Below are positions 10,914 through 53,900 of a stretch of 64,000 nucleotides of DNA, one piece after another; position 1 is the stretch's first letter, and each line of letters starts with the position of its first letter. The notes beneath the pieces were generated by a model. It did no database searches, was not told the DNA's origin, and saw only the letters and a list, made by a program, of their open reading frames with translations. The position numbers were made by a program, and so were the translations under genes. The stretch is from Myxococcales bacterium (GTDB taxonomy: Bacteria > Myxococcota > Myxococcia > Myxococcales > UBA5297), in NCBI GenBank assembly GCA_031552145.1, contig JAVBMV010000007.1, positions 226,486 to 290,485 on the forward strand. The letters run 5' to 3'.

Positions 10914-10935
10914 CCGCTCGACGCGCTGCGTAGTA

Positions 10936-10975
10936 CCCGCGGGGGCCGTGCCGATGGGCGCGGCCCCCGCGCGCT
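10936..10975. repeat. GC-rich hairpin, left copy of a direct repeat bracketing the ATPase gene at 11095-12342
   Basis: GCGGGGGCCG...CGGCCCCCGC forms a 10-bp stem. The 31-bp core GCCGTGCCGATGGGCGCGGCCCCCGCGCGCT (10945-10975) is identical to 12441-12471. The similarity extends about 10 bp further 5' with 2 mismatches. Confidence 0.8.
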
Positions 10976-10984
10976 TTGCGCTGT

Positions 10985-11094
10985 GACTCCAGAACCTCCC
11001 CGGCTCGACTCCAAATTTGCGCCATCCGGACTCCAGATCATCCCCGACTTGACTCCAAATCGTCCCCGGCCTAGCCTCCAAATCGTCCCTTTTC
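10985..11094 (+). repeat. Five tandem ~22-bp direct repeats (iteron-like) ending at the ATPase start codon
   Basis: Units start at 10985, 11007, 11029, 11051 and 11073/4: GACTCCAGAACCTCCCCGGCTC / GACTCCAAATTTGCGCCATCCG / GACTCCAGATCATCCCCGACTT / GACTCCAAATCGTCCCCGGCCT / (A)GCCTCCAAATCGTCCCTTTTCG. Consensus GACTCCARATC.TCCCCGG. Confidence 0.8.
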
Positions 11095-12342: not shown

Positions 12343-12431
12343 TCTCCGAGCAGGAGTCCCGCAAGAGCGAAGGCCCGGCGAGACACTGGCTCTCCGAAGA
12401 ACCGCATGCTTGCTCGATAGGCTGCGCAATA

Positions 12432-12471
12432 CCGGCGGGAGCCGTGCCGATGGGCGCGGCCCCCGCGCGCT
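12432..12471. repeat. Right copy of the hairpin/direct repeat; abuts the stop codon of the convergent giant gene
   Basis: The 31-bp core 12441-12471 is identical to 10945-10975. One stem mismatch (GCGGGAGCCG). The giant-gene stop (CTA on the plus strand) is at 12472-12474. Confidence 0.8.
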
Positions 12472-27748: not shown

Positions 27749-28240
27749 ATGGCCCAAAAGATCTCGCCCCTGCTTCCCCCAACCGCGGAGCTGTTGCGAC
27801 AGCTCGGCGCACGGCTCAGGCTCGCCCGGCTGCGGCGCGGATTGACGGCGCGCCAAGTCGCGGAGAGAGCCGGCATGGCCCCGATGACCCTTCGCGGAGT
27901 AGAGAGGGGCGCGGCGGGAGCGACGATTGGCGCCTATGTAGCCGTCCTGCAGGTGCTCGGGCTCGAGAGCGCGCTGGCCCTGCTCGCCAAGAGCGACGAA
28001 GTGGGGCGCGAGCTGCAGGACGCCCAACTTCCGAGCAGGCCACGGCCCAGACGCGTCGCAGGCGGAGGGCGCGCCTCGAGTGCGAAGAAACATGAAGCGC
28101 CTCATGATGCTCCTTCGAAGGCGCAGAGTAAGGCTCCGAGCTGGGCCGCCGCCGCCGGCTTTGTCACCTCCGAGGAGCTGGCACGCGCGCGCTCCGCACC
28201 GCACCCCAGCACCCACACCGACGAAGACGAGCAGGAGTGA
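27749..28240 (+). CDS. hipB: XRE-family HTH protein, HipB-type antitoxin
   Basis: HTH LRLARLRRGLTARQVAERAGMAPMTLRGVERG. The stop overlaps the hipA start (GTGA, 28237-28240). Long, low-complexity C-terminal tail. Confidence 0.8.
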   Translation: MAQKISPLLPPTAELLRQLGARLRLARLRRGLTARQVAERAGMAPMTLRGVERGAAGATIGAYVAVLQVLGLESALALLAKSDEVGRELQDAQLPSRPRPRRVAGGGRASSAKKHEAPHDAPSKAQSKAPSWAAAAGFVTSEELARARSAPHPSTHTDEDEQE

Positions 28241-29511
28241 ACGTGTCCTCGATCGCGGTCTATGCGGGCTGGGGTGGCATCGGCGGGCCCACGCGCCTCG
28301 GCTGGATCCATCTACGCCAAGGTGGCGCGCGTGAACTCTTCGAATTCGAACTCGACGAGGGTGCGCTCGAGGATCCTGCCTTCGCCGGTCTTCACCTCGA
28401 CCCGCGCATAGGCTGGTACCCGGGGCGCCAGCATCCGCCGCATGGGTTCGCCACGTTTGGGCTCTTCAGCGACGCCAGCCCCGATCGATGGGGCCGTCTC
28501 TTGATGCGGCGGCGTCTGGAGCGGGAGCAGCGCGCGGGGCTCGTGGATAAGAGCGCGAGGCTGCGCGAGTCGGACTATCTGTTGGGGGTCCACGATTCTT
28601 TCCGCGTGGGTGGACTGCGCTTCCGCCTGGAAGATGCGGGTGCGTTTCTGGACGACAGGCATGGGATGGCAGCGCCTCCGTTGGTTCGGCTGCGCGAGTT
28701 GGAGGCGGCCAGCTTGGCCTTGGAGCGCGACACGGAGAACAGCGCGCCCGAGGGAGACGATTGGCTGAAGATGCTGCTGGCGCCAGGAGGCTCACTGGGC
28801 GGCGCGCGCCCCAAGGCGAGCGTGACCGATCCCGAGGGTGGGCTCTGGATAGCCAAGTTCCCCAGCGCGGGCGATCTTCACGACGTCGGTGGCTGGGAGA
28901 TGGTCGTGAATACGCTCGCTCACCAATGTGGACTCTCTGTTCCCGAAGTGATGGTGCAGCGCTTCTCGGGGCCGCACCACACCTTTTTGGTGAAGCGCTT
29001 CGATCGCGAGGGAGAGAGGCGCCTTCATTTTGCCTCCGCCATGACGTTGACCGGTCATAAAGATGGCGAAGATGGCTCGGTGGGTGTGAGCTATCTGGAG
29101 CTTGCGCAGGTGCTCGTCAAAGAGGGGGCAGAGGTCGAGCGTGACCTGCGGGAGCTGTGGTCGCGAGTGGTCTTCAATGTCCTCGTCTCCAACGCGGACG
29201 ATCACCTGCGCAACCACGGTTTTCTGCTGCGCCCCGGCAGAGGATGGTCCCTCTCGCCCGCCTATGATCTCAACCCCGTACCCATGGCCCAAGGGCTCAA
29301 GCTGAACATCAGCGAGGCGGACAATGCGCTCGAGCTCGCGCTCGCCCTGGAGGTCGCGCAGTTCTTCCGCGTGGGTGCAAGGGAGGCGAGCGAGATCGTG
29401 GCGCGATTCAAAGGCGTGGTTCGAGGGTGGCGGGCTATCGCCGCGCGCCTCTCGCTCCCGCGGCGTGAACAGGAGCGGCTGAGTGACGCCTTCCGGGCGA
29501 GTGAGAACTGA
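28237..29511 (+). CDS. hipA: HipA-family serine/threonine kinase toxin
   Basis: N-terminal HipA coupling region (IAVYAGW...RLGWIHL...FEFELDEGAL). GGSLGGARPKASV. Catalytic NADDHLRNHGFLL...WSLSPAYDLNP. Confidence 0.9.
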   Translation: MNVSSIAVYAGWGGIGGPTRLGWIHLRQGGARELFEFELDEGALEDPAFAGLHLDPRIGWYPGRQHPPHGFATFGLFSDASPDRWGRLLMRRRLEREQRAGLVDKSARLRESDYLLGVHDSFRVGGLRFRLEDAGAFLDDRHGMAAPPLVRLRELEAASLALERDTENSAPEGDDWLKMLLAPGGSLGGARPKASVTDPEGGLWIAKFPSAGDLHDVGGWEMVVNTLAHQCGLSVPEVMVQRFSGPHHTFLVKRFDREGERRLHFASAMTLTGHKDGEDGSVGVSYLELAQVLVKEGAEVERDLRELWSRVVFNVLVSNADDHLRNHGFLLRPGRGWSLSPAYDLNPVPMAQGLKLNISEADNALELALALEVAQFFRVGAREASEIVARFKGVVRGWRAIAARLSLPRREQERLSDAFRASEN

Positions 29512-30350
29512 TGAAGACGAATATCGAGCTCATCCAGGGCGACAACCTCGAGATAACCCGGCGCTTCGCCGACGCATCGTTCGACCTTATCTACATCGAT
29601 CCTCCCTTCAACACGGGGCGCGCCCAGTCGCGCACGCGCATCCGCGTGGCGCGCGCCGAGGGGGACGCCCCGGGCGACAGGACGGGCTTCCAGGGACGGC
29701 GCTACAGGACGGAGGTGCTGGGGAAGAGCGCCTACGCCGACGCCTTCGACGACTACATGGAGTTCCTGCTGCCGAGGCTTTTAGAGGCGCACCGGCTGCT
29801 CGCGCCGAGCGGCAGCTTCTTCCTGCACCTCGACTACCGCGAGGTCCATTACGCGAAGGTGGCGCTCGACGCGATCTTCGGTCGCGAGAGCTTCATCAAC
29901 GAACTGATCTGGGCCTACGACTACGGCGCGCGCGCGACGAAGCGCTGGTCGCCCAAGCATGACACCATTCTTTGGTATGCCAAGGATCCGGAGAACTACT
30001 GCTTCAACTACGATGAGATCGATCGCATCCCCTACATGGCCCCCGGCCTCGTGGGGCCCGAGAAGGCGGCGCGGGGGAAGACGCCCACCGACACCTGGTG
30101 GCACACCATCGTCAGCCCTAATGGCAAGGAGAAGACGGGCTACCCCACGCAGAAGCCGCTGGGGATCCTCACCCGCATCGTCCGCGTCCACTCGCGCCCC
30201 GGCGACAGGTTGCTCGACTTCTTCGCCGGCAGCGGCTCCTTCGGAGAGGCGGCGGCGCGCCTGGGGCGCCACGTCACCCTGGTGGACGAGAGCCCCGAGG
30301 CGATGGAGGTGATGCGGCGTCGTCTGGGGTGTTACCTGACGGCGCCATGA
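29511..30350 (+). CDS. Beta-class DNA methyltransferase (N6_N4_Mtase family; the DPPF motif suggests N6-adenine)
   Basis: Motif IV FDLIYIDPPFNTG lies N-terminal and motif I LDFFAGSGSFGEAA lies C-terminal (beta-class order). ATG 29511 overlaps the hipA stop (TGATG). No adjacent restriction endonuclease gene was recognised. Confidence 0.85.
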   Translation: MKTNIELIQGDNLEITRRFADASFDLIYIDPPFNTGRAQSRTRIRVARAEGDAPGDRTGFQGRRYRTEVLGKSAYADAFDDYMEFLLPRLLEAHRLLAPSGSFFLHLDYREVHYAKVALDAIFGRESFINELIWAYDYGARATKRWSPKHDTILWYAKDPENYCFNYDEIDRIPYMAPGLVGPEKAARGKTPTDTWWHTIVSPNGKEKTGYPTQKPLGILTRIVRVHSRPGDRLLDFFAGSGSFGEAAARLGRHVTLVDESPEAMEVMRRRLGCYLTAP

Positions 30351-30430
30351 AGGGCGCGGCAAGCGGCGCCCATCTCGACGCTGCATCTGGAGGAGGCGCG
30401 AGGGAAGGGCGCGGCAAGCGGCGCCCCTAC
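30349..30430. repeat. Two tandem copies of the GAAGGGCGCGGCAAGCGGCGCCC hairpin filling a convergent intergenic region
   Basis: Copy 1 (30349-30371) starts inside the methyltransferase stop codon. Copy 2 (30404-30430) ends on the stop codon (CTA, 30427-30429) of the minus-strand gene. The same element occurs at 22631-22656 and inverted at 22507-22530. Confidence 0.75.
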
Positions 30431-30969
30431 TTTGCTTTCGCCGCGCGCGCCTGGACGAGAGCAATGAACTCGTCCGAGATCGTCGTCATCGAGCGCGCGA
30501 AGGCGTTGAACCTGGCTCTGGCGCGGCGCGCATTCTTGTCGCTCTCCTCGGAGTCGAGCGGAGCCAACTCCAGCGACGCCAGCGCATCTTTCTGCCGCTG
30601 AGTCAGGAGCTTTCCAATCTCTTTGCCATCATCACCTCGAGTGGGCCTCTGGCGGAGCGCGGCGCCCTCCTTCAGGGTCGAGGCGCTGATCTCGCCCTGC
30701 TGCTTCATCTCGTCGCGCGCTTTCTTCAGCGCGGCGACGATGGCAGGGCGCTTCTTCTCGAGGTCCGCCTTGAACTGCTCGGCCCTGGCGCGCGCCTCTT
30801 TGAGCAGCGGCAGGATCTGACGTGCCTGCTCGGGAGTCAGGTCGAGCGCCTTGTCGATCTTGAGCGCCGAGATCTCCCGCTTCAGCGCGGCGACCTCGGG
30901 GTCATTCTCCGCGGCAGAGGCGGCGGTGGGTAGGAGCAGCAGGGAGAGCGCGATGGCGAGTCGTTTCAT
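30427..30969 (-). CDS. Periplasmic Spy/CpxP-like (LTxxQ-motif) helical protein
   Basis: Signal peptide MKRLAIALSLLLLPTAASA. LTPEQ motif. K/E/A-rich helical sequence. Last gene of the sigma/anti-sigma operon. Confidence 0.65.
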   Translation of the reverse strand: MKRLAIALSLLLLPTAASAAENDPEVAALKREISALKIDKALDLTPEQARQILPLLKEARARAEQFKADLEKKRPAIVAALKKARDEMKQQGEISASTLKEGAALRQRPTRGDDGKEIGKLLTQRQKDALASLELAPLDSEESDKNARRARARFNAFARSMTTISDEFIALVQARAAKAK

Positions 30970-31041
30970 GTCGTTCGTCCTTGTCGTTGACGGTCGAGGG
31001 CAGGTGTTTCATGGGTGAGAGACCCTCGGCGCGCGATTAGG

Positions 31042-31422
31042 TTAAGGCGCGTCGAGCTGGGCGAATGGAGAGAGGTGGGCGAGCTCTTCGGGGTAGCTCT
31101 CGAGGAGTTCACCGCTGCACCCCAAGTCGTAGGCCCAGGTGGGCCACTCCTCGGGGACTGGCTCCACCCACACAAAATCATCTGGCGCGCGCACCTCGCC
31201 GAAGTCGAAGAGCCAGAGACCGAGCGCCGCCGTGGCGACGGAGATGCCTCCAGCCAGCGCGAGCCTTCTGGGCCACGGCGTGCGCTGGGCATGAGGGAGC
31301 TTCAACCGCGCGGCCGCTGTTGGGGTGGCGCCCGCGGTCGATTCCAGAAGCGCGAGCACTTCGCGTGCCTTTGCGCATTCGGCGCAGCGCGCTGGATCGG
31401 GACAGTCGTGGAGGGCTTTCAT
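31042..31422 (-). CDS. zf-HC2-type anti-sigma factor
   Basis: N-terminal H-x-C-x6-C-x2-C (MKALHDCPDPARCAECAKA). One TM helix (LALAGGISVATAALGLWLF). The start overlaps the sigma-factor stop (ATGA, 31419-31422). Confidence 0.7.
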   Translation of the reverse strand: MKALHDCPDPARCAECAKAREVLALLESTAGATPTAAARLKLPHAQRTPWPRRLALAGGISVATAALGLWLFDFGEVRAPDDFVWVEPVPEEWPTWAYDLGCSGELLESYPEELAHLSPFAQLDAP

Positions 31423-31991
31423 GACTCTTCCTCACTGCGAATGAGCGACCGCAGGCGCGCGGTCGCCTGATGGAAGGTGACTCTCGCGTTGATCTCGGTG
31501 ATCGAGAGCGCGCAGGCGAGCTCCGCGAAAGAGAGTTCTGCGTCGATCCGCAGCGACACCACCTGGCGTTGGCGAAGCGAGAGCCGCCCCAGGCAGTCGC
31601 GCAGGCGCCGCCGCTCCTCCTCCATGACGAGCGGCTCGTGGTTCGTCGTCGCCACCTCGAGTGGCAGGCCCAAGAGGCGCCTCGCGCAGTCGCGAAGATA
31701 GTTGCGGCAGAGGTTCGAGGCTGCCTTGAAGAGATAGGGCTTGAAGGCGCCCGGCGCGCGCAGTCTCCGCAGCTTCGGCAGCGTCGCGACGAAGGTCCGT
31801 TGAACCAGCTCCTCCGCCTCGTCTGTGTCGCGCGCGTAGCGAAAGGCGAGGCGATAGAGCTGTCGGTAGTAGCGCGCGAAGAGCAGATCGAGCGCGCGCT
31901 GGTCGCCCTCGAGGTAGAGGCAAACCAGCTCGTGGTCGGCCGCGGGATCCGTGGCAGTGGCAAGAGGAAGGGCCTGGGCGATAGCGTGCAC
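31419..31991 (-). CDS. ECF-type sigma-70 factor
   Basis: Region 2 (LLFARYYRQLYRLAFRYARDTDEAEELVQRTF) and region 4 (LSLRQRQVVSLRIDAELSFAELACALSITEINARVTFHQATARL). The track start at 32117 would leave no space before the divergent gene at 32120. GTG 31991 is chosen but uncertain. Confidence 0.75.
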   Translation of the reverse strand: MHAIAQALPLATATDPAADHELVCLYLEGDQRALDLLFARYYRQLYRLAFRYARDTDEAEELVQRTFVATLPKLRRLRAPGAFKPYLFKAASNLCRNYLRDCARRLLGLPLEVATTNHEPLVMEEERRRLRDCLGRLSLRQRQVVSLRIDAELSFAELACALSITEINARVTFHQATARLRSLIRSEEES

Positions 31992-32054
31992 GATTGGAGA
32001 ACACGCGGCAGGGCAAAATGTTAGCGCCGGGGTCGCACGTCTTTCTTCGTTCCC

Positions 32055-32083
32055 TTGTGTCAGTACTCTCGGGAGGCTAAGAT
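32055..32083 (+). promoter_or_regulatory. Putative sigma70-like promoter for the ATPase gene at 32120
   Basis: TTGTGT (32055-32060), 17-nt spacer, TAAGAT (32078-32083), in an AT-rich patch. Imperfect inverted repeat CTAAGAT...ATCTTGG overlaps the -10. GAGG lies 7 nt before ATG 32120. Confidence 0.35.
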
Positions 32084-32119
32084 GTTTTACGTTATCTTGG
32101 CTCTCTAAATGAGGCAACC

Positions 32120-33583
32120 ATGGCCAAAGACTGGGGTTTTTATGGCAGAAAGAGCGAGCTCGAGGCCATGGGCAAGATCTTGGAGCGCGGGCGCTGGTTT
32201 TTCCTGAAGATCACGGGGAGGCGGCGTATCGGCAAGAGCAGTCTCGTTCGACAGGTCATCGGATCAGGGAGGGGGCGCAAGGTCCTCTACATCCAGATCC
32301 CGGACTCCGATCCTTCGGGCGTGGTCAGCGCCGCCCGCGACTTCATGAAGACCTTCGGGATCGATTCGGGACTTCCCGGCGACCTCAGAAGCCTCGCGGC
32401 GCGCTTGGCCTCGCTCGTGGAGGAGGGGTGGGTGGTTGCGCTGGACGAGTTCCAGTACTTCCATCGAAAGGCGCTCTTCGAGTTCACGTCGCAGCTGCAG
32501 GTAGAGGTGGATCGGCTCTCCGAGAAGGCCGAGCGCGTGCGCGGCGGGATGATCGTGCTCGGCTCCGTGCACACCGAGATGGTCGCGCTCTTGGAGGAGC
32601 GAACGGCGCCGCTCTTCAACCGAATCACCGACGAGATCGAGCTGGGTCACCTCGATGTCGCGTCGCTGTTGGAGATGTTGCAGGTGCATGCAGATCTCGC
32701 TCCGCGCCGCCTGCTCTTCCTGTGGAATCTCTTCGAGGGCGTACCAAAATTCTACCGCGACTGCTTCGAGCGCGGCGTCCTCGGAGCAGAGAGGGAGGTG
32801 CTGCTGGAGCAGATGTTCTTCGGCAGCAGCAGCCCGCTGCGCGGCGAGGCCGACAACTGGTTCCTACGCGAGCTTCAAGGGCGATATGACTTCGCGCTCA
32901 AGTACATCGCGGCCCATCCAGGCTGCTCCAACGCCGATGTCGTCGCGCACACGGTGGCGGTGGAGCCCGAGAAGAAGCGGCTCATCGTTGGATACCTGAG
33001 GGCACTGGAGGAGCGGTTCGAGATGATCGAGCGCCTGCAGCCCATCTTCGCTCCGCCCAAGAGCAGGAACGGGCGCTTCTACATTCGAGACAACTTCTTG
33101 CGGACCTGGCTGGCTGCGCTCTCGGTCCCGGCGGCTTCGATCAACTTCAGGCCTGTAGCCGAGCTGGTGCGCCAAGCGAACGAACGACTCGCTGAGTCCG
33201 AGGGATATGGACTGGAGCGGCTGGCAGCGGTCCTCTACGAGGAGCGGAGCCGCAAGGGAGTTGGCGACTTTGGCGTCACGAAGATGGTGCGTGGCTGGTG
33301 GGATCGCGCTGGAACAGAGATCGATCTCGTCGCGGTGAACGAGCAGGAGCGGGTGATTCGTCTCGGTTCATGCAAGCGCACGCCGGAGCGGCTCGTCGCG
33401 TCGTTGAAGGCGTTCGACGGACACGTGGCGCGCTTCAGGGAGACGCGGCGCGAGCTCGGAGATTTCAAGTTGGAGAAGGTGGCGATTGCGCCGGAGCTTA
33501 CGCCTGAGCAGCGGCGCAAGATCGAGGAGCAGGGCTACCTGCCGCAGTCCCTCTCCGAACTGACGGCGCCGTTGAAGAACTAG
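32120..33583 (+). CDS. Arch_ATPase-type AAA+ ATPase with C-terminal DUF234-like PD-(D/E)xK domain
   Basis: Walker A GRRRIGKSSL; Walker B VVALDEFQ; C-terminal GTEIDLVAVNEQERVIRLGSCKRT. Confidence 0.8.
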   Translation: MAKDWGFYGRKSELEAMGKILERGRWFFLKITGRRRIGKSSLVRQVIGSGRGRKVLYIQIPDSDPSGVVSAARDFMKTFGIDSGLPGDLRSLAARLASLVEEGWVVALDEFQYFHRKALFEFTSQLQVEVDRLSEKAERVRGGMIVLGSVHTEMVALLEERTAPLFNRITDEIELGHLDVASLLEMLQVHADLAPRRLLFLWNLFEGVPKFYRDCFERGVLGAEREVLLEQMFFGSSSPLRGEADNWFLRELQGRYDFALKYIAAHPGCSNADVVAHTVAVEPEKKRLIVGYLRALEERFEMIERLQPIFAPPKSRNGRFYIRDNFLRTWLAALSVPAASINFRPVAELVRQANERLAESEGYGLERLAAVLYEERSRKGVGDFGVTKMVRGWWDRAGTEIDLVAVNEQERVIRLGSCKRTPERLVASLKAFDGHVARFRETRRELGDFKLEKVAIAPELTPEQRRKIEEQGYLPQSLSELTAPLKN

Positions 33584-33652
33584 GGGCGCAGAGATAAGGC
33601 CCGAGGCACTCTAGGTGATGCGGCGCCGCCAGGCGTGGTACAGGACGACCCC

Positions 33653-34861
33653 ATGAGACGCTCTTCGAAAATTGTCGCTCTGTCGACGCTGCTCTTTGTG
33701 GCGCGGCCGGTGTTTGCCCAGAGTCCCGCTGACCCCATCGATCCCGATCTCGCCGCCGCGGCGAAGGAGGACGAGGCAGCGCGGGGGGCGGCGGGCGCCT
33801 CGGCTACGTCCGGCCCCGTGGCGAAGCTCAACCCCGACCTCAGCCTCATCATGAGCGCCGGCTTCGGCTGGTTTGGCCGCGAGGAGCACCTGCTCCAGGG
33901 TGGCCACGCCATGGACGAGAACGGCTTCGCGCTGCAGGGGCTGGAGCTGGCCGCCTCGGCCTCGGTCGATCCCTACTTCCGCTTCGATCTCAGCTTTGAG
34001 CTGCGCCATCAGGAGCTGGAGGAGGTCTATCTGACCACCCTGGCGCTGCCCGCGAGCCTCCAGGCCCGCGCGGGCTACTTCAACGTCGCCTTCGGAAGGC
34101 AGAACCCACAGCATCTGCATACGTGGAACTTCGCCAACCCGCCGCTCTCCCACACCCGCTTCATGTCGGAGGAGCACTTCAGAGGGACGGGGGCCGAGCT
34201 CTCGAGGCTCTTGCCTCTACCCTGGTATTCGCTGCTCCTCGCCGAGGTCATGACGCCGAGCGAGGCGTCGGAGTTCAACTCCGCGACCTTCGGCACGGTG
34301 GAGCAGGGGCGGGGCGGAACTACGAATGGGCTGGAGGATCTGCTCTATGTGGGCCGGCTTGAGAACTTCTTCGAGCTCTCTACCGATTGGTCGTTGCTCT
34401 TCGGCGCGAGCGCCGCCTTCGGCCAGAGCCCCTATCTCTCCGGCGGTCGCGCCGCGCTCTATGGAAGCGACCTCTACTTCAAGTGGCGCCCGCTCGCGGG
34501 GGGTGGTGACTTTGCGGTGGCGCTCACGCTCGAGGCGCTCCTGCGCGACAGCGAGCTGCCCGAAGATTCCCTGCGCGACTGGGGCGGCTATGCCCAGCTC
34601 GATTTCTTTCTGAGCCGCCGCTTCATGCTCGGCGCGCGGGGCGACTATGCGGCGACGGCCCAGGGGGCATTGCCCGAAGAGTCGGAGCTCCCGCGCAACG
34701 AGGCGCGCGGCTCGCTCGCCTTCACCTTCCTGCCCTCCCACTTCTCCAAGCTGCGGCTGCAGGCGGATCTGTCGCGGGCCGCTCCAGGGGCCGATTGGGC
34801 GCCGGCGCTCTTCCTGCAGGCCGAGGTGAGCGCCGGAGAGCATGGCGCCCACAAATTCTAA
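33653..34861 (+). CDS. Putative outer-membrane beta-barrel (porin-like) protein upstream of the metal ABC importer
   Basis: Signal peptide MRRSSKIVALSTLLFVARPVFAQ. Beta-strand-rich sequence ending in C-terminal Phe (...GAHKF). Start taken at ATG 33653. Confidence 0.6.
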   Translation: MRRSSKIVALSTLLFVARPVFAQSPADPIDPDLAAAAKEDEAARGAAGASATSGPVAKLNPDLSLIMSAGFGWFGREEHLLQGGHAMDENGFALQGLELAASASVDPYFRFDLSFELRHQELEEVYLTTLALPASLQARAGYFNVAFGRQNPQHLHTWNFANPPLSHTRFMSEEHFRGTGAELSRLLPLPWYSLLLAEVMTPSEASEFNSATFGTVEQGRGGTTNGLEDLLYVGRLENFFELSTDWSLLFGASAAFGQSPYLSGGRAALYGSDLYFKWRPLAGGGDFAVALTLEALLRDSELPEDSLRDWGGYAQLDFFLSRRFMLGARGDYAATAQGALPEESELPRNEARGSLAFTFLPSHFSKLRLQADLSRAAPGADWAPALFLQAEVSAGEHGAHKF

Positions 34862-37580: not shown

Positions 37581-39134
37581 ATGTTTCGCACGAGCACGCC
37601 CGTCACCGATCATTCCTTCTTCGACCGCGAGCAGGAGCTGGGCCAGCTGAGCCAGGCCGTGCAGCAGCTGCGCGAGGGCGCGCCGCAGTGGGTCGCCCTC
37701 TTGGGGAGCCGCAAGGTCGGAAAGACCAGCCTGTTGATGGAGTTGTCACGCAGGTGCCGCGATGAGGAGACGCGGTTCGTGATCCTCGACTCGTTCGAGG
37801 ACGGGGCGCTCTCACTAGGGCTCTTCAGACGGCTGGCGCTCAGGGTCGTCGACGCCTTCTTCGCCAGCGAGCTCGGTGTCTCCGTCGAGGCGCTCGCCGC
37901 GCGCCCTGCCGACTATCAGGCGGCGCTGATGGAGTCGAAGCAGCTGCCGCGCCTCTCCCGCGCGCTGAGGACGGATCTGTTGGGACTGGCCCAGATGAAG
38001 GCCGACGCGCGCCTGGTGGAGCTCTCGCTGGGACTCGCGGAGCGGCTGGCAAGCGAGCTGGAGAAGTGGTGCGTCATCGCCTGGGACGAGTTCCAAGAGC
38101 TGGCGCGGCTAAAGTCGGGCACCGAGCGGGAACTCCTGGCGGTGGCGCGCGCCATCTGGCAACGCCATCAGCGCACGGCCTATCTGATCAGCGGCTCGGA
38201 GCGCTCCATGATGCAGGAGCTGATCTCCTCGAAGGCCTCACCGTTCTTTCAGCATTTCTCGCCGATGGAGCTGGGGCCAATGCCCGAGGTCGAGGCGGTC
38301 CGGATGCTGGTGAAGAGCGCGCCCGTGGGGCGGGCCATCTCCGAGACGATCGCGCGGCGCGCCATCGCGCTCCTGGGGGGCCATCCGTTCTACCTCCAGC
38401 TCTTCGGCGAGACGCTCACCGCGCTGGAGCCACCCTACGACGAATCGTCGGTACAGCAAGCGATCGCGGAGCTGCTCTTCCAGCGCACCGGCCGGCTGGC
38501 GCTCTATTTTGCGAGGCAGCACGAGAGCGCTGTGGGGCGCGCGGCGACGCTCGCCGCGGTGCTCGACGCGCTGGCGGCGGGCCCCGCGCGCCTCTCCGAG
38601 ATCGCCTCCCGAATCGGAGCCTCCAGCGGCTCGACAGTTCGGTATCTCGACCGCCTGGGCGAGCTGGTTCTGCACCGCAGAGAGGAGGCCCTCTACGAGC
38701 TTGCCGATCCCGTCTTCGCGCTCTGGTTGCGCTGGCGTAGGCCCGGTGGCTCGGTCGTCCCGCTCACGCTGATGGGGAACGAGGCGGAACTCGAGGTGGC
38801 GCGCCAGCTCGCCCTGATGGGCTTCGAGCTGGTCTATCAATCTCGTGCCTCGCGAGGGGCCTTCGATCTCTTGGGGGTGCGCAACGGAGAGCAGCTCGCC
38901 ATTCAGGTCAAAAGAAGTGGGTTGCCGCTGCGTTTTTCGAAGCCCGAATGGCAGCGGCTCAAGGCCGACAGCGAGAGGCTGGGCTGGCCCTTCGTCGTGG
39001 CCGCCGTAAGCCCGGAAGGGGAGGGAGGAGTCTCTTTCCTCGCACCCAGCGGCGCACAGGTGCGGCGCGCAGTCACGCTCGGCGCCGCGGCGCGTATCGA
39101 GAATCTACTCGCATGGATGGAGGTGGGACCCTGA
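37581..39134 (+). CDS. Arch_ATPase-type AAA+ ATPase fused to a C-terminal Hjc/PD-(D/E)xK-like nuclease domain
   Basis: FFDREQELGQL...LLGSRKVGKTSLL (Walker A); VIAWDEFQ (Walker B). C-terminal EAELEVARQLALMGFELVYQSRASRGAFDLLGVRNGEQLAIQVKRS resembles the archaeal Holliday-junction-resolvase D...(E/Q)xK core. Confidence 0.75.
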   Translation: MFRTSTPVTDHSFFDREQELGQLSQAVQQLREGAPQWVALLGSRKVGKTSLLMELSRRCRDEETRFVILDSFEDGALSLGLFRRLALRVVDAFFASELGVSVEALAARPADYQAALMESKQLPRLSRALRTDLLGLAQMKADARLVELSLGLAERLASELEKWCVIAWDEFQELARLKSGTERELLAVARAIWQRHQRTAYLISGSERSMMQELISSKASPFFQHFSPMELGPMPEVEAVRMLVKSAPVGRAISETIARRAIALLGGHPFYLQLFGETLTALEPPYDESSVQQAIAELLFQRTGRLALYFARQHESAVGRAATLAAVLDALAAGPARLSEIASRIGASSGSTVRYLDRLGELVLHRREEALYELADPVFALWLRWRRPGGSVVPLTLMGNEAELEVARQLALMGFELVYQSRASRGAFDLLGVRNGEQLAIQVKRSGLPLRFSKPEWQRLKADSERLGWPFVVAAVSPEGEGGVSFLAPSGAQVRRAVTLGAAARIENLLAWMEVGP

Positions 39135-39141
39135 AACCCGC

Positions 39142-39978
39142 TCAGGGCAGTCCATGCGCCGTCACGGTGCGCCGCGTCGCGCGCGTCTCGGCGCGAATGG
39201 CTCTGTTGGCTTCGAGATCGGGCAGATTCCGATAGGGCCTGGAGTGTTCGAGGTGGAGGCAGAGCAGGGAGTAGCGCAGCTGGAGGCCCGTGATGCCGGC
39301 GTTCTCGAGGCGCTCGCCCAGCTCGCGGTCTTCGCCGCCATACTTCATCCGCTCGTCGAACCCCTTGGCAGCGAGCAGATCGCTCCGCCAACCCGAGGCG
39401 TTGCAGCCGTTCCAAGAGGCGCGAGTGGGCGTCAGGGTGTTCATGACGTGAGCGACGCGCTCGGACCGGAGCAGCTTCAGGTTCTTGAGCGAGAGGGGGA
39501 GGCCGTTCGCCCGAAGCCAGCCGTGCGCGAAGGCCTGCTCCGTGCCTATCTCCTCCTCGCCGAGCCGCTGGCTCAGCGCGAGCGGCAACCTCAGGTAGCC
39601 TCCCGAGAGGAAATGCCCGCGTCGAGCGCCGCGCTGGTGGCGCTCGACGAAGTCGGCGCGCGGCACGCAGTCCTGATCGGTGAAGATCAGATAGTCGGCC
39701 TTGGCCGCGAGGAGCGCCTTGTTCAGGATCTTGGTCTTCTGGAAGCCGTCGTCGGGGTGCCAAACGTGCTTCAGTCCCGGGAAGCAAGAGGCCGCAAAGC
39801 GCTCGAGCAGCGCCCTGGTCTCATCGCCCGAGCCGTCATCGGCGACGATGAGCTCGAAGGCGCGCTGGCTCTGCCGCGCATACCCCCAGAGCGTCTTCTC
39901 CAGCCACGCCGGGTTGTTGTAGGTGGAGATGACGACGCCAATGCTGGGCGCTGGCCCCTCGTCACGCTCTTCTCTCAT
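39142..39978 (-). CDS. Family 2 glycosyltransferase
   Basis: IGVVISTYNNPAWLEKTLWGYARQSQRAFELIVADDGS...FTDQDCVP (GT-A fold DxD-type motifs). Confidence 0.85.
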   Translation of the reverse strand: MREERDEGPAPSIGVVISTYNNPAWLEKTLWGYARQSQRAFELIVADDGSGDETRALLERFAASCFPGLKHVWHPDDGFQKTKILNKALLAAKADYLIFTDQDCVPRADFVERHQRGARRGHFLSGGYLRLPLALSQRLGEEEIGTEQAFAHGWLRANGLPLSLKNLKLLRSERVAHVMNTLTPTRASWNGCNASGWRSDLLAAKGFDERMKYGGEDRELGERLENAGITGLQLRYSLLCLHLEHSRPYRNLPDLEANRAIRAETRATRRTVTAHGLP

Positions 39979-40041
39979 GGGTCCCCGCTAAGAAAGAGGC
40001 GCCCAGCTTCGCAACGATCTTTGCCGCTAGCAAGAGGGGGA

Positions 40042-40089
40042 GGTGTGGCCCTAGGATGGCCGATCGTTTCCTCAACAGAGGTTGAACGC
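40042..40089 (+). repeat. Left copy of a 48-bp perfect direct repeat (duplicate of the glnS leader including its RBS)
   Basis: GGTGTGGCCCTAGGATGGCCGATCGTTTCCTCAACAGAGGTTGAACGC is identical to 41482-41529. Degenerate similarity extends ~30 bp further 5' (about 40010 vs 41455). It is followed directly by an ATG (40090). Confidence 0.85.
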
Positions 40090-40104
40090 ATGACGGAAAA
40101 GAGG

Positions 40105-41277
40105 TCAGCACAACTCGCGAATCGAGCGCGCGCGGATCCTCGGGGCAAGCTCGAAGCTCTCGGCGCCAGCGTGGAGGACCTCAATGCGCTCTAGCTTCAG
40201 ATCGGCCTGGGCGTTGCGCATCGAGGGCGTGACCTTGGGGCTGTCCGTATATTTCACCTCGAACCCTAGTCGCTCTCCGCCGCGCACGATGAGCAGATCC
40301 AGCTCCGCGCCCGAGTGGGTTCGCCAAAAGAAGCACTCGTTGTCGCGCGCGCCCAAGTGCTGGGTAATCTGCTCGATGGCGAAGCCCTCGAAGGAGGCAC
40401 CCAGCTTGGGGTGACGCTCCAGCTCGCGCCTGTTGCCTATATCGAGCAGGGAGTGCAGGAGCCCGCTGTCGCGCAGGTAGAGCTTGGGCGACTTGACCAC
40501 CCGCTTTCTTAGATTTTCATGCCAAGGGCGCAGTTGGCGGACCATGAAGGTCTGCTCGAGCGCGTCGCAGTAGCCTCGTACGGTGTTGTCGTTGACGCTC
40601 ATGGAGCGCCCCAACTCGGACCAGTTGAGGAGCTGGCCATGCAGGTGCGCCAGCATGGTCCAGAAGCGCTCCAGTGACTTGGAGGCTATCCTCAGCCCAA
40701 GCTGCGCGAGGTCGCGCTCGAGGAAGGTGCGGATGAACTCGCGGCGCCACGATGCGCTCGTCGAGAGAGTGCGGGCGGTAAAGGAACGAGGAAAGCCTCC
40801 GCGAAGCCAGAGGTCGGCGAGGCGGTTGGGCCCTACCTCTCCGAGGTTGAAGCCCGACAGCTCGTGGTAGGCGATGCGGCCGGCGAGCGACTCGCTGCTC
40901 TGGTGCAGCAGATCGCCGCTGGCGCTGCCCAGGAGCAGGAAGCGTGCGCGCAGCGGACGGCGATCCACGAGCACGCGGAGGCTGGGGAAGAGCTCCGGGC
41001 GCCGCTGGATCTCGTCTATGACCACGAGCCCGCGCAGCCCCTCCAGGGCGAGCATGGGGTTCTCTAGCCGCGCCAAATCTCTCGGATCCTCGCAATCGAA
41101 CCAGGTGCCCTGCTTGCTGGCGGCGAAGAGCTCGCGCGCGAGGGTGGTCTTGCCCACTTGACGTGCCCCTAGGAGCGCGACGGCTGGGTGCTGTTTCAAG
41201 AGGCGCGCCACGAATAGGCGGTGTTTGTCTCTGTCGAGCATACCCTGAATATTCGCAGTCAGGCTCTGAATATTCAA
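40105..41277 (-). CDS. AAA+ ATPase with C-terminal DUF4143-type PD-(D/E)xK nuclease-like domain
   Basis: Walker A GARQVGKTTL; Walker B VVIDEIQ; C-terminal GAELDLLIVRGGERLGFEVKY. The track start at 41277 is TTG; ATG 41241 (MLDRDKHRLF) is an equally plausible start. Confidence 0.8.
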   Translation of the reverse strand: MNIQSLTANIQGMLDRDKHRLFVARLLKQHPAVALLGARQVGKTTLARELFAASKQGTWFDCEDPRDLARLENPMLALEGLRGLVVIDEIQRRPELFPSLRVLVDRRPLRARFLLLGSASGDLLHQSSESLAGRIAYHELSGFNLGEVGPNRLADLWLRGGFPRSFTARTLSTSASWRREFIRTFLERDLAQLGLRIASKSLERFWTMLAHLHGQLLNWSELGRSMSVNDNTVRGYCDALEQTFMVRQLRPWHENLRKRVVKSPKLYLRDSGLLHSLLDIGNRRELERHPKLGASFEGFAIEQITQHLGARDNECFFWRTHSGAELDLLIVRGGERLGFEVKYTDSPKVTPSMRNAQADLKLERIEVLHAGAESFELAPRIRARSIRELC

Positions 41278-41481
41278 GGTCAGAGATCGCGATTTTCACT
41301 CTGAAGTCTGCAGGTATGCACCGGAGATGGATGCAGGTCACTCCCTGCTGGTCAGGCCCTGCCTGCAGGGGCCGATGGAGCGGCGCCGGGCGCGGATCCT
41401 CGGGGCTAGCTCGAAGCTCGGCGCTTGCGTGGCTCTCTCTCCGCCCTGCCGGCTCGAAAGATGCCACTAGGAAAGAACTCG

Positions 41482-41529
41482 GGTGTGGCCCTAGGATGGC
41501 CGATCGTTTCCTCAACAGAGGTTGAACGC
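41482..41529 (+). repeat. Right copy of the 48-bp direct repeat; functions as the glnS 5' leader/RBS
   Basis: Identical to 40042-40089. GAGG lies 9 nt upstream of the glnS ATG at 41531. Confidence 0.85.
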
Positions 41530-41530
41530 C

Positions 41531-43306
41531 ATGTCCGAGACGCCCCGCCCCGAGAGTCCCAACACCTCATCAACCCCCAACCCCGCGCCGCCCGAGCGCG
41601 AGGAGGGGCTCGACTTCGTGCGCGCCCTGGTGGCGGAGGCCGTCGCCCAGGGGAAGAACGGAGGGCAGGTGGTGACGCGCTTCCCGCCCGAGCCCAACGG
41701 CTACCTCCACATTGGCCACGCGAAGGCGATCTGCCTCAACTTCGGCATCGCCAAGGAGTTCGCGGGGCGCTGTCACCTGCGCTTCGACGACACCAATCCG
41801 ACGAAGGAGGACGTGGAGTTCACCGACTCGATCATCGAGGACGTGCGCTGGCTCGGCTTCGACTGGGGAGAGCACCTCTACTACGCGAGCGACTACTTCG
41901 AGCAGCTCTACCAGTGGGCGCTCGCGCTCATCGACAAGGGGCTCGCCTATGTCTGCGACCTGGACGCGGAGCAGGTGCGCGCCTACCGCGGCACGCTGAC
42001 CGAGCCGGGCAAGGAGAGCCCCTTCCGAAGCCGCTCCATCGCGGAGAACCGCGACCTCTTCCAGCGGATGCGCGCCGGCGAGTTCCCCGACGGTACGCGC
42101 ACGCTGCGCGCCAAGATCGACATGGCCTCGTCGAACCTTAATATGCGCGACCCGGCGCTCTACCGGATTCGGCGCGCGCACCACCACCGCACGGGCGACG
42201 CCTGGTGCATCTACCCGATGTACGACTGGGCCCACGGCCAGTCGGACGCCATCGAGGGGATCACCCACTCGATCTGTACGCTCGAGTTCGAGAACCACAG
42301 GCCGCTCTACGACTGGTTCATCGAGAAGCTCGAGCTGAAGAATCACCCGAGGCAGGTGGAGTTCGCGCGCCTCAACCTGGGCTATACGGTGATGAGCAAG
42401 CGCAAGCTGTTGCAGCTGGTGCAGGAGAAGCGCGTCAGCGGCTGGGACGATCCGCGCATGCCGACCATCGCCGGGCTGCGCCGCAGGGGCTATACGCCCA
42501 GCTCGCTGCGCGCCTTCGCCGAGCGCATCGGCGTAGCGAAGCGCGAGAGCATGGTCGATGTGGGCCTGCTCGAGAACGCCATCGCCGACGAGCTCAATGC
42601 CAGCGCGCCGCGCGTCATGGGGGTGTTGAAGCCGCTCAAGGTGGTGATCGAGAACTGGCCCGAAGGGCAGGTCGAGTGGATCGACGCCCCCTATTTGCCG
42701 CCCGCGCCGGGGCAGGCGCCCGCCGAAGGGCCGGGCCCGACGCGCAAGGTTCCCTTCGGGCGCGAGCTCTACATCGAGCGCGACGATTTCATGGAAGACC
42801 CCCCGAAGAAGTTCTTCCGCCTGGGGCCCGGGCGCGAGGTGCGGCTGCGCTGGGGCTGGTTCCTCAAATGCGAGCGCTTCATCAAGAATGAGGCGGGGGA
42901 GGTGATGGAGCTGCGCTGCACCTACGATCCCGCGACGAAGGGGGGCAACTCGCCCGACGGACGCAAGGTGAAGGGCACCATCCACTGGGTGAGCGCCGCC
43001 CACGCGCTCGACGCGGAAGTTCGCCTCTACGATCGGCTCTTCAATGTCGAGGACCCGGCGGCGGTCGAGGATTGGCTCGCTGCCATAAACCCCGAGTCGC
43101 TCGTGCGCCTTTCGGGCTGCAAGCTCGAACCCAGCGTCGCCACGCTGAAGCAGGGCGAGCGGGTCCAGTTCGAGCGCCAGGGCTACTTCTGTCTCGACGC
43201 GAAGGAGAGCCGCCCGGAGGCGCTCGTCTTCAATCGGATCGTCACGCTCAAGAGCAGTTGGGCCAAGGCTCAGGCGAAGGACGCCGGCGGCGCGGAGGCT
43301 GGCTGA
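41531..43306 (+). CDS. glnS: Glutamine--tRNA ligase
   Basis: [23 protein letters not shown] (HIGH); TVMSKRKL (KMSKS-like). Class I GlnRS/GluRS core plus C-terminal anticodon-binding barrels. ~30-aa Pro/Ser-rich N-terminal extension. Confidence 0.95.
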
Positions 43307-50945: not shown

Positions 50946-53900
50946 CTATGGCACGGCTATTGGCGTCGGGTTTGCTATCTTGAATCCGCGCACGTCTGAA
51001 GCCGTATTGGAGTTGTTTATTCCCAGGATGCCGTAGTTGTTCTGCCCCCAGCAATAGACTGAGCCATCCGATTTTAGGGCGCAGGTTGAGCGCAGAGAGG
51101 CTACCACCTCCACGACGCCACTGGCGAGATCGGGCAGGGCAATCGCTGCCGCCGATGAAGTTCCAGTGGTCGTGCCAAGTTGGTAATAGGAGTTGCTGCC
51201 CCAACAATGGACGGCACCCGCCACGACGGCGCAGCTGTGGGACTCGGAGGTGGCTAGGCTGCTGATAGTGCCCGTCACCACGTTTATTTGCGCGCCAGCT
51301 TCCGCGGTTCCCCCATTGCCGTTCTGTCCATAAAAGTTGTAGCCGGTGCAGAAGATTGCTCCGTCAGAGGCCCTGGCTGCGCAAGTCCTGGCATAGGAGG
51401 AGTCGCCGATGAAGATCTTCGAGTACGGGACGTTGGGTAGATCGATAGGTGCCGGGGTCTTATTCTTTTCCCAACAGTGGACGCCGCCCGCTGCTGGCGC
51501 GACACACAGATGCATGCGGCCGCCAGCGATGGCCGTTACGCCCGTATCGTAGCCGACAAGATCGATGGGGGTGCTCGTGCTCGTGCAGGGGAGGCCCTCC
51601 TCGGGCTCCGCATTTCCCCCGGTCCAAGCGCAGTATCCCCAACACTTCACGCCTCCGGTATTAGTTAACGCACAAGTGACGTCGTTGCCGACAGCTACAT
51701 CCGTCGCCGTCCAAGAGGTCTGCCCCACGATATCGGTGGGGGCGCCCTGGTCTGACGGGTTGGGAACTGCAAGTCCATCGCCGAGTGCACCGTTCGCGGC
51801 TTTGCCCCAGCACTTAACGATGCCGGTTGTGGTCACCAGACAGCCGTGGGTATTGGTGGACGGGGCAATCTTGGCGATTTGATAGCCAGTGTTTTGGACA
51901 GCGACTGGATAGTACTTGTTGGTGGTGCCGCCGTCGCCTAATTGTTTGCCGGTTCCGATACCCCAACAGTATGCCGTCCCAGAGTCTTTAAGCACGGCGC
52001 AAATGTTGTAGTACCCGCTGCTGTAGATGTGCGCGATCTGCTCGCACTTGCCGCTGGCCCCTGGGCCCTTGAGGAAGCCCGGCAGACATGTGCAAGCGCC
52101 GCTAAGGCACTGGGACGTTGTCGCTCCCAGAGTCGCCGCGCAGTCGATGGCGGGCGATCCGCAAACATTGAGCGTGTCGAGCACGCAGGTGTTGCCTTCC
52201 TTGTGGTGGGTCGAGAGGCAGGTGGCCACTTCGCAGGTTCCTCCCGCGAGGCAGTTGGCCGTGGCGACGCCCTCGGCCGCGGTGCAGTCAGTCCCGCCCG
52301 CGCCGCAATACGTCCCGTCGTCCGCCATGCAGAGGTTGTTACCAAAGATGGTCACTATGTGGAAATCGGGCTTGCAAGTAAGTGCCTTACACTGCCCGCC
52401 TGCGGCGCACTCCAAGGAGGCTGCGTTGGGGAACTGGTCGACGCAGTTGACATTCTCCACCCCGCAGTGCTCGGCGTCGTCGGGAAGGCAGGTGAAGGTA
52501 GCGCCGACGTAATAGTAGTCGTCGTCGCAGGTGAGCGGCTTGCACGTGCCGCCAGCGAGACAGTCGGCGGTGGCGACACCGGCGGCGGTGGTGCAGTCAA
52601 TCTGGGCGGGGCCGCAGTGCTCGCTATCATCCGCGGCACAGCCGTTGCCGCTGATGTGGAAGTCGAGGTTGCAGGTGAGCGCCTTGCAGATGCCCGCGTC
52701 GCAGTCGACGGTGGCGGCGTTGGTGAGGGCAGTGCAGTCGGCCTCGGCCTCGCCGCAGGCGGTGTTGGTGTCCGGCGCGCAGCCGAGGTTCTTGAGGTGG
52801 TAGTCCGCGTCGCAGCCGGTCGCCTCGCAGTTTTCGTTGTTGCAGATGGCGGTGGCGACGCCGATGATCTCGGTGCAGTTGACCTGGCTGGGCCCACAAT
52901 GCTGGGCGTCGTTGGCGATGCAGGTATTGCCGTCGATGTGGAAACCGGGGTCGCAGGTGAGCGCCTTGCATCGCCCGCCCGCGAGGCACTGGGCCGTCAC
53001 GACGCCTTCGAGCGCGGTGCAGTCGATCTGGCTTCCGCCACAATGCTGAGCGTCGTCGGCGGCGCAGTCGGCCCCGGCGATGTGGAAGTCGACAAGGCAG
53101 CTCAGCGCCTTGCAGAGGCCGAGGTCGCACCGGGCGCTCTCGACGCCAGCGGCGGTCATGCAGTTGGCCTCGCCGGTGCCACAGAGCGTGGGGCTATCCT
53201 GGATGCAGGCGTCGCTCTTGAAGTGATAGCCCGGGTCGCAGGTGAGCGCCTTGCAGGTTCCACCTGTGACGCAGGAGGCGGTGGCGACACCGGCAATCGC
53301 CTCGCAGTTGGTTTCGCTGGTGCCGCAGGCCGAGGGGGAATCCGGGATACAGGCGTTGTTCTTCAGGTGATAGTTGGCCTTGCAGGTATCGACCTTGCAA
53401 AGTGCGTTGACGCAGCTGGTCGAGGCCGCGTTGGGATTGGCGGTCTCGCAGTTGAGTTCGGTCGCGCCGCAGGCGGTGGCGCTATCGGGCAGGCAGGCGA
53501 AGTTCTTCAGGTGGAAGTTGGCCTTGCAGGAGGTGGCCTGGCAGTTGCCGAAGGTGCAGACGGTAGCGGCGGCCCCCGCGGCCGTCGTGCAGTTGGTTTC
53601 GCTGACGCCGCAGAGGGTGGCGCTGTCGGCCACACAGGTGTTGTCCTTCAGGTGGAAATTAGCCTTGCAGGCCGTGACCCGGCAGGCGCCCGCGTCGCAG
53701 ATGGTCGCGGCGGCGTTGGGGTTGGTGGCGCCACAGTTGGTCTCGCTGACACCGCAGACGGTGGTGGAGTCGGGGATGCAGGCGTTGCCGCGAAGGTGGT
53801 AGCCGGAATTGCACGTGTCGACCTTGCAGAGGCCGCTGACGCAGGAGGTGGTGGCCGCGTAGGGGATGGCGGCGCAGTTCACCTCGGCGGCACCGCATGC

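Follow-up and report, generated by a model that had tools for sequence, protein, structure and literature searches.

In a 64-kb stretch of DNA from a Myxococcales bacterium (contig JAVBMV010000007.1; the whole stretch is hereafter the window, and coordinates are window positions unless a locus is named), a single gene encoding an ATPase with a DUF4143 domain stands between a family-2 glycosyltransferase (GT2) gene and glnS, the gene for glutaminyl-tRNA synthetase, and is bracketed by two identical copies of a 48-nt sequence, the leader and ribosome-binding site (RBS) of glnS. We consider it likely that the ATPase gene belongs to a foreign cassette that inserted between GT2 and glnS with long target duplication, showing no site specificity and using no transposase or integrase. 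The duplication, the single-gene insert, the recurrence of this arrangement around relatives of the gene with repeats specific to each locus, and the variable ends of the inserts were all observed directly. Taken together, the variable ends, the variable repeat lengths, the locus-specific repeats and the preserved neighbours fit two independent illegitimate joints that overlap on the target.

The insert between GT2 and glnS

The features of the locus are the following:
39142–39978, minus strand: GT2 gene, left-hand neighbour, divergent from glnS
40042–40089, plus strand: left copy of the 48-nt repeat (A-left), the duplicated glnS leader and RBS, with a 34-codon open reading frame (ORF) downstream
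40090–40194, plus strand: 34-codon ORF with the duplicated RBS and an ATG, antisense to the ATPase 3' end
40090–41481, minus strand: inserted segment of 1392 nt, a single gene, GC 0.642
40105–41241, minus strand: AAA_14 + DUF4143 ATPase gene, 378 aa, with its start ATG at 41241, aligned with the starts of homologues
40127–40176, minus strand: repeat B, native ATPase 3' coding sequence AESFELAPRIRA, conserved in homologues
41243–41279, minus strand: 37-nt inverted repeat CCTTGAATATTCA-N11-CGAATATTCAGGG, found family-wide, containing CTGAATATTC twice
41277–41272 and 41254–41249, minus strand: predicted promoter, with a putative −35 hexamer TTGAAT, a 17-nt spacer and a putative −10 hexamer GAATAT, the ATG following 7 nt on
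41387–41434, minus strand: repeat B', a decayed copy of B of about 48 nt, inside the insert and upstream of the promoter
41482–41529, plus strand: right copy of the 48-nt repeat (A-right), the functional 5' leader and RBS of glnS
41531–43306, plus strand: glnS, right-hand neighbour (Pfam tRNA-synt_1c, 1.9e-105)

The 48-mer, GGTGTGGCCCTAGGATGGCCGATCGTTTCCTCAACAGAGGTTGAACGC, is identical at 48 of 48 positions between its two copies, which are offset by 1440 nt and are the only copies in the window when up to three mismatches are allowed; shuffled sequence yields none. To the left of the copies the similarity ends abruptly, and different flanks with sharp ends adjoin them on both sides. An ATG resumes after both copies, past a 1-nt indel: A-right stops one base short of the glnS ATG, and A-left, which lies 63 nt from the start of the divergent GT2 gene, runs directly into the ATG of the 34-codon ORF. 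A preliminary description, made from the letters of the window, had reported the perfect duplication with these coordinates and this offset, the identity of the right copy as the glnS leader and RBS ahead of an ATG at 41531, and the ORF from 40090 to 40194 antisense to the ATPase 3' end; the repeat search and domain matches agree with all of these. The same description had also seen degenerate similarity over some 30 bp ahead of both copies, which turned out to be at chance level (local-alignment p 0.14–0.28; 13 of 30 positions in register), and for that reason we rejected it as a trace of an older, larger duplication or as a homeologous anchor.

The intactness of glnS is preserved by the duplication. 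The 34-codon ORF is probably a by-product, without support as a gene. No sigma-70-like promoter was detected in the 48-nt repeat, and antisense transcription into the ATPase gene from the duplicated leader is speculation. We also rejected the idea that the 48-mer is a known leader or forms a structured RNA, as it has no match in Rfam and no conservation upstream of the glnS genes of relatives. Within the 1392-nt insert the ORF list and Pfam domains reveal no integrase, transposase or phage gene; its one ORF is the AAA_14 + DUF4143 gene.

The product of this gene matches PF13173 (83.7 bits against a cutoff of 27; 1.4e-23) and PF13635 (159 bits against a cutoff of 28.1; 1.1e-46), in keeping with the DUF4143 ATPase assignment of the preliminary description, and it also matches the PADLOC model PDLC04790 for PDC-S01 (3.6e-89). 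The Walker A motif GARQVGKTT (G25–T33) and the Walker B DE (D76–E77) are intact, as is the PD-(D/E)XK motif D315...E328-x-K330, all in invariant columns of the homologue alignment; DUF4143 is listed in the PD-(D/E)XK superfamily (PMC3424549). An AlphaFold2 model (predicted local distance difference test score, pLDDT, 91.6) finds its nearest solved fold in the PF01637-type ATPase 2qen, followed by STAND/NLR, RuvB, ORC and MuB AAA+ proteins, and no solved structure was found among the sequence relatives of the ATPase. By its sequence, then, the inserted gene encodes an AAA+/winged-helix/PD-(D/E)XK ATPase-nuclease of the candidate defence family PDC-S01 (COG1373), whose models are strongly matched by both DUF4143 ATPases of the window and whose domain order of ATPase and PD-(D/E)XK nuclease fits (PMC3424549; PMC12988326). 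PDC-S01 is reported to be the fourth commonest defence-type gene of prokaryotes, an unvalidated candidate with multiple transfers across domains (PMC12988326).

The gene appears foreign to its host, judging from its lower GC content at third codon positions (GC3), its distant homologues and its patchy spread across phyla. GC3 is 0.84 for the inserted gene and 0.75 for a sister DUF4143 gene in the window, compared with 0.92–0.93 for glnS, the peptidase gene and a neighbouring core gene. Identity reaches only 69% even for the closest homologues, and relatives at 54–63% identity come from Planctomycetota, Acidobacteriota, Elusimicrobia, Chlamydiae, Bacteroidota and other phyla; records with relatives of the ATPase include 379 from plasmids and only 7 from phages. 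The ATPase C-terminus is 5–13 aa shorter than those of homologues and its stop codon lies 15 nt from A-left, so the 3' junction probably clipped the gene.

Flanking repeats at other loci

The window holds two further inserts of this kind, which we refer to as sister cases:
10916–12471, plus strand: sister case 1, DUF4143 ATPase (gene 11095–12342; PDC-S01, 3e-160)
30291–33656, plus strand: sister case 2, 3.25-kb insert with a PDC-S27 ATPase (32120–33583; ATPase_2 + DUF234, 1.7e-207)

A similar arrangement had been proposed earlier for 10936–12471, and there is indeed a 60-nt repeat of 88% identity at 10916–10975 and 12412–12471, which covers practically all of the terminator hairpin in the intergenic space of two convergent genes. 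The two DUF4143 proteins of the window are just 30% identical to one another. Sister case 2 carries a 60-nt repeat matching at 46 of 60 positions (77%) at 30291–30350 and 33597–33656 around an insert at 30351–33596; the end of this repeat coincides with the ATGA in which the stop codon of a Type II methyltransferase gene overlaps the start codon of the following ORF. Within 64 kb there are thus three candidate defence genes of the ATPase type, all bracketed by long local repeats of their own.

To ask how general the arrangement is, loci of relatives were taken in two independent sets, from species-representative genomes (80 loci, 74 scored) and from metagenomes (80 loci, 64 scored). The sequences on the 5' and 3' sides of the gene were aligned with each other in direct orientation, and a top alignment score of 40 or more counted as positive. 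Controls had the same geometry shifted along the same loci, or the inverted orientation. A flanking direct repeat was found at 7 of 74 loci in the genome set (9/341 shifted, 1/74 inverted) and at 12 of 64 in the metagenome set (1/123 shifted, 2/64 inverted), which pools to 19/138 versus 10/464 shifted (p = 6e-7) and 3/138 inverted. A conservative count that leaves out L065 (a three-copy repeat), L042 (a hairpin) and L153 and L158 (a second operator copy, described below) still gives 15/138 versus 10/464 (odds ratio 5.5, Fisher p = 5e-5), and several of the shifted-control matches are tandem paralogues or the same L065 repeat.

The 19 repeats measure 34, 37, 46, 47, 47, 48, 50, 55, 58, 60, 60, 86, 88, 111, 112, 129, 152, 193 and 193 nt, are 70–100% identical, are spaced 1258–1598 nt apart and differ in sequence at every locus. 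The upstream repeat ends 3–217 nt before the inverted repeat (which we describe below as an operator), and the downstream repeat starts −2 to 88 nt from the stop codon. Across some 160 loci no k-mer is common outside the inverted repeat and the ORF, and hence the repeats are local sequence and not borne by the element. Many of them cover functional boundaries. The L013 repeat spans the region where two convergent genes overlap at their 3' ends, that of L051 a stop/start junction, and those of L074, L134 and L152 the RBS together with the initial codons of the gene downstream; in L036 (tRNA-Asn, 46 nt) and L108 (tRNA-Glu, 58 nt) the repeat covers the 3' half of a tRNA gene.

A pair of arrangements on sphingomonad plasmids shows insertion into a conserved tra (conjugation) operon, the cassette lying between traH and its upstream gene in L164 and L172, and the same 45–47-nt traH spacer being present without the cassette in L170 and L171. 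Four samples (L176–L179) hold a relative of the ATPase gene in a futalosine/menaquinone-type operon, between a TPR gene and Amidohydro_1/UbiA genes, which is a further insertion into a housekeeping operon. The six plasmid loci tested for flanking repeats gave no positive, and two proteins found in identical form on several contigs (P0127, P0204) always occur in the same context, with no sign of very recent multi-site mobility. As a presence/absence test the Escherichia coli pangenome gave no match to an enterobacterial homologue.

Some neighbouring observations belong beside these. L065 has three copies of a repeat of about 190 nt (2118–2310, 3760–3952 and 5214–5406 of that locus), spaced 1.45–1.65 kb apart around successive small units, one of them the ATPase; the layout resembles a cassette array and is no simple target duplication. 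In the window, a HipA-like toxin gene (28237–29511) lies just upstream of sister case 2, and an ATPase gene at 37581–39134 (ATPase_2/AAA_16 with an IclR-type helix-turn-helix and a weak PDC-S27 match) adjoins GT2; no flanking repeat was seen around the latter. With this ATPase gene beside GT2, the region from 28 to 41 kb has the look of a small defence island that ends at glnS. Unrelated to the insertion are long arrays of 141–144-nt coding repeats at 52200–54700 and 58400–59350, which by the look of their TGC/GCA periodicity may be Cys-rich, and three 156-nt repeats at 20904–21275 in very large ORFs.

The inverted repeat and duplicated element sequence

In the family, 117 of 161 loci, from many phyla, have a 37-nt inverted repeat shortly before the start codon, with the consensus ACCTTGAAAATTCGG-N-CCGAATTTTCAAGGTA (about 45 nt upstream of the start in L003–L181). 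At the glnS locus this is the 37-nt element listed above, and the two CTGAATATTC copies noted in the preliminary description at the ATPase 5' end, which do lie at 41245–41254 and 41266–41275, are part of it. A 12-position score for the inverted repeat reaches at least 10 in 50 of 78 upstream regions versus 0 of 234 intragenic controls. The arms covary (pair 13/27: CG 96, GC 17; pair 15/25: GC 70, AT 24, TA 5; pair 16/24: TA 49, CG 16, AT 14), and such joint change fits a site read by a symmetric dimer, or a hairpin.

The common form of the inverted repeat has a TTGACA-like hexamer in the loop (at least four of six positions in 62/117 loci), TAnnnT after the arm (74/117 loci) and the ATG 12–13 nt past the arm; given the −10-like TAnnnT and this spacing, a transcript would start at or beside the ATG. 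In a short form, which this ATPase gene has in common with its three closest relatives and the plasmid subfamily, the ATG follows directly after the arm and the −35 and −10 fall inside the arms. Since the form is shared in this way, we rejected a reading of the short spacing as a deletion that destroys the promoter. We infer that the inverted repeat is an operator overlapping the promoter of a leaderless mRNA, and it is probably read by the winged-helix domain of the cassette's own protein, as an autoregulatory site that travels with the gene. The DUF4143 subfamily of sister case 1 may have a counterpart of this operator in four 22-nt repeats (GACTCCAAAT core) at 10985–11082, directly upstream of the 11095–12342 gene.

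The minimal conserved unit is the inverted repeat together with the ORF, some 1.2 kb, and at L181 this unit stands only 4 nt and 18 nt away from its neighbours. No conserved 3' element was found downstream of the family genes, and the literature searched contains nothing on movement of PDC-S01 genes, on their flanking repeats or on the upstream inverted repeat.

Nested between the two 48-nt copies is a second direct repeat, such that on the plus strand A-left is followed after 37 nt by B, and B' after 47 nt by A-right. The core of B (40127–40159) matches that of B' (41387–41419) at 31 of 33 positions, and the similarity extends over about 48–50 nt with a 2-nt indel; the second imperfect direct repeat reported earlier is thus real, although its coordinates had been placed slightly off. 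The homology of B' is sharply bounded at the B core. We rejected the possibility that B' is the native tail, still intact, of an earlier copy of the gene upstream, since its end is sharp and no further ATPase-like sequence lies upstream, and other loci have no 3'-end fragment upstream of the gene (score 64 here versus a maximum of 28 elsewhere). B/B' is a nested duplication of element sequence.

Three loci without an outer target repeat carry the operator at both ends of the gene, in copies of 38–42 nt spaced 1210–1233 nt apart:
L173, 2961–2999 and 4176–4214: duplicated operator, the second copy overlapping the stop codon
L153, 2950–2987 and 4160–4197: duplicated operator
L158, 2922–2963 and 4155–4196: duplicated operator

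L091 contains a degraded second copy of the cassette 5' end and three copies of a 173–193-nt flanking repeat:
L091, 610–695, 1521–1693, 2628–2800, 2918–3003 and 4203–4375: copies of these sequences

This locus looks like a decayed tandem amplification through flanking repeats. B/B', the operator duplications and L091 together establish that short terminal redundancy of element sequence does occur, and B/B' with the tandem forms and those in which the gene stands between two inverted repeats suggests that the incoming DNA was longer than one unit, deriving from a tandem or circular intermediate.

Origin of the duplication and its significance

We hypothesize that a cassette consisting of the 37-nt inverted-repeat operator/promoter and the leaderless ATPase-nuclease gene entered the short GT2–glnS intergenic region through two junctions that lay 48 bp apart on the target and in overlapping order, which would leave the glnS leader and RBS on both sides of the insert. 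The joints would have formed by illegitimate recombination associated with a break or with replication, either on two sister copies broken at different points or by template switching. Selection would then retain only those outcomes in which both neighbours are intact, and such selection would explain why the repeats often lie over gene ends, RBSs, terminators and tRNA 3' halves. The breaks may come from the nuclease that the gene itself encodes, although the account does not require that, and the incoming DNA could exceed one unit length if it came from a tandem or circular intermediate.

For restriction–modification (R-M) gene complexes, insertion with long target duplication was reportedly described by Nobusato et al. 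in 2000 (Gene 259:99). It has been documented for Type I–IV R-M genes without mobility genes, including the single-gene mcrA (Type IV), with unique direct repeats from 45–47 bp up to about 420 bp that often lie over gene or tRNA ends; repeat-mediated tandem amplification is known in these cases, and double-strand breaks were suggested by the authors (Furuta, Abe and Kobayashi 2010, NAR 38:2428, PMC2853133). The criteria of that study ask for a direct repeat of more than 30 bp immediately flanking the insert, an insert of less than 20 kb without mobility genes, a repeat that is not multi-copy in the genome, and a related genome whose empty site has the repeat once between aligning flanks; here the repeat matches at 48/48 positions (60 nt at 88% and 77% in the sister cases), the insert is 1392 nt with one ORF, and within the 64-kb window the repeat has just two copies at up to three mismatches. 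Like the R-M insertions, the one at glnS combines a defence-type nuclease gene, the lack of a transposase or integrase and locally unique repeats of variable length over the ends of neighbours. It differs from the documented set in its cargo, a PDC-S01 ATPase-nuclease without a methyltransferase (with a PDC-S27 ATPase nearby), although R-M cargo is not mechanistically required, and in having a conserved inverted-repeat promoter and a nested duplication of element sequence. The event at the glnS locus belongs to this known kind, known but obscure so far, and extends it with statistical support across phyla to a very abundant family of single-gene defence candidates.

Several points weigh against our explanation. 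No empty site was found for the GT2–glnS locus, the nearest GlnS proteins being 72–74% identical with other, nonsyntenic neighbours; the target duplication at glnS is consequently deduced from the repeat alone, unlike the published R-M cases, which were proven by empty sites. A search for the empty site of L152 through its downstream GH127-like gene returned only contigs that begin at the repeat: the first letters of those of L163 and P0242 lie 33 and 124 nt ahead of the GH127-like gene, which suggests assembly breaks or population polymorphism there. When L164 is compared with L170 and L171, an apparent 55-nt overlap of the flanks is lost in a multiple alignment, and a duplication is not demonstrable at that divergence. 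A simple two-joint model does not account for B/B' or for the spacers of 37 and 47 nt that separate it from the A copies. A flanking repeat is missing from about 85% of family loci; the control windows lie mostly over resident genes, and so the survey demonstrates enrichment beyond ordinary positions without separating specificity for this family from a property of inserted DNA in general. Finally, the window comes from a metagenome-assembled contig. The earlier proposal that a single-gene unit of about 1.4 kb had inserted with duplication of tens of bp of target is supported by the anatomy, the two further cases in the window and the enrichment around relatives, whereas the insertion itself is argued from analogy, the lower GC3 and the patchy cross-phylum distribution.

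An alternative that we regard as unlikely is that the cassette is an autonomous one-gene mobile element, whose AAA+/winged-helix/PD-(D/E)XK protein would bind the inverted repeat as an oligomer and nick the strands tens of nt apart (some 35–60, sometimes more); the unit would be excised or copied as a circle or tandem, and nicks in the target, and occasionally in the element, followed by gap fill-in would produce both A/A and B/B'. The strong excess of flanking repeats for PDC-S01 relatives, the inverted repeat conserved in sequence and travelling with the gene across phyla, the intact nuclease and ATPase motifs, the tandem remnant in L091 and the duplication of element sequence at both ends, of similar size, in four loci (B/B' here; L173, L153, L158) are all consistent with such an element, as is the size distribution of the repeats, 11 of 19 lying within 34–60 nt where published R-M cases cluster at 45–47 bp (PMC2853133). 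However, the insert ends are not fixed on either side of the unit, ranging over 3–217 nt before the inverted repeat and −2 to 88 nt past the stop; there is no conserved 3' element; repeat lengths reach 193 nt; identical proteins are each found in a single genomic context; a pure double stagger predicts A and B to be adjacent, in place of the gaps of 37 and 47 nt; and the family is otherwise read as a defence candidate, without reported transposition activity. In CRISPR spacer integration and in casposons, widely staggered attacks and gap fill-in duplicate the target (a 28–37-bp repeat for CRISPR, 14–15 bp for casposons). The cassette, in contrast, has no Cas1-like gene, no fixed duplication length and no terminal inverted repeats, and the analogy serves the self-mobilising alternative only. 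Nor does the cassette resemble a classical insertion sequence or DNA transposon, as its sole inverted repeat is internal, on the 5' side and 202 nt from the insert end (3–217 nt in relatives), no transposase domain is present and the duplications of 34–193 nt bear out the preliminary remark that they are far longer than classical transposon target-site duplications. It differs likewise from an integron gene cassette, with no conserved downstream (attC-type) element and with housekeeping genes as neighbours.

We consider it quite improbable that a tyrosine or serine recombinase, acting in trans, integrated the unit site-specifically, in which case the 48-mer would be an attachment (att) core common to the glnS 5' end and a small element without integrase, resembling a cis-mobilizable element (CIME), and nothing would have been duplicated. 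The perfect 48-nt identity with its sharp ends does resemble an att core, defence and mobile genes abound in the region (HipA, methyltransferase, PDC-S27), and the repeats at tRNA-Asn and tRNA-Glu duplicate the tRNA gene in the classic manner, anticodon loop through 3' end; tRNA-targeting integrative elements and CIMEs share with our loci the tens-of-bp repeats, the small island beside a housekeeping or tRNA gene and the restored gene end (L036, L108). Yet the unit contains no recombinase, the repeats are unrelated between loci with nothing conserved beyond the inverted repeat and ORF that could be an element-borne attP, lengths of 34–193 nt and variable insert ends do not suit one recombinase, and three different repeats surround three different inserts within 64 kb. 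Campbell-type homologous recombination of a circle with the glnS leader already on it (such as a circle excised from the same site in a sister strain), or a local tandem duplication with later gene conversion, has very little likelihood as the source of the repeat: flanking repeats permit excision and re-integration, L091 holds a tandem array with a degraded copy, repeat-flanked R-M units can amplify (PMC2853133) and conversion could explain the perfect identity of the copies, but these processes account for the maintenance of a repeat and not for its origin, they sit poorly with the different, sharply ending flanks on both sides of the copies, and they leave unaccounted for the independent loci in many phyla, each with a different local repeat. 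That the 48-mer is an assembly artefact or a chance repeat we consider extremely improbable. A perfect repeat in a metagenome-assembled contig, and the contigs of a relative that break exactly at its repeat, might raise the suspicion; shuffles, however, give no such repeat, common metagenome assemblers finish with k-mers longer than 48 nt, so that each copy with its flanks should have been supported by reads, and the sister cases in the window and most others are imperfect (70–98%), beyond what assembly artefacts produce.

Insertion with long target duplication therefore remains the explanation that we favour for the glnS locus, and it links PDC-S01 to an insertion route described 25 years ago for R-M genes. 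It portrays a portable unit of about 1.2 kb, made up of a putative leaderless operator/promoter and one ORF, that lands in tight intergenic spaces of housekeeping operons and leaves a scar still visible at 11–14% of relatives' loci (15–19/138). The hundreds of thousands of homologues, with their conserved 5' landmark, form a large and easily scored set of natural events for work on the mechanism and on a possible role of the nuclease in making the breaks, and the predicted operator/promoter would be a ready-made, host-independent expression module. If the self-mobilising alternative were true, the family would represent a new class of nuclease-driven transposition, which would also account for the long target duplications of R-M genes.

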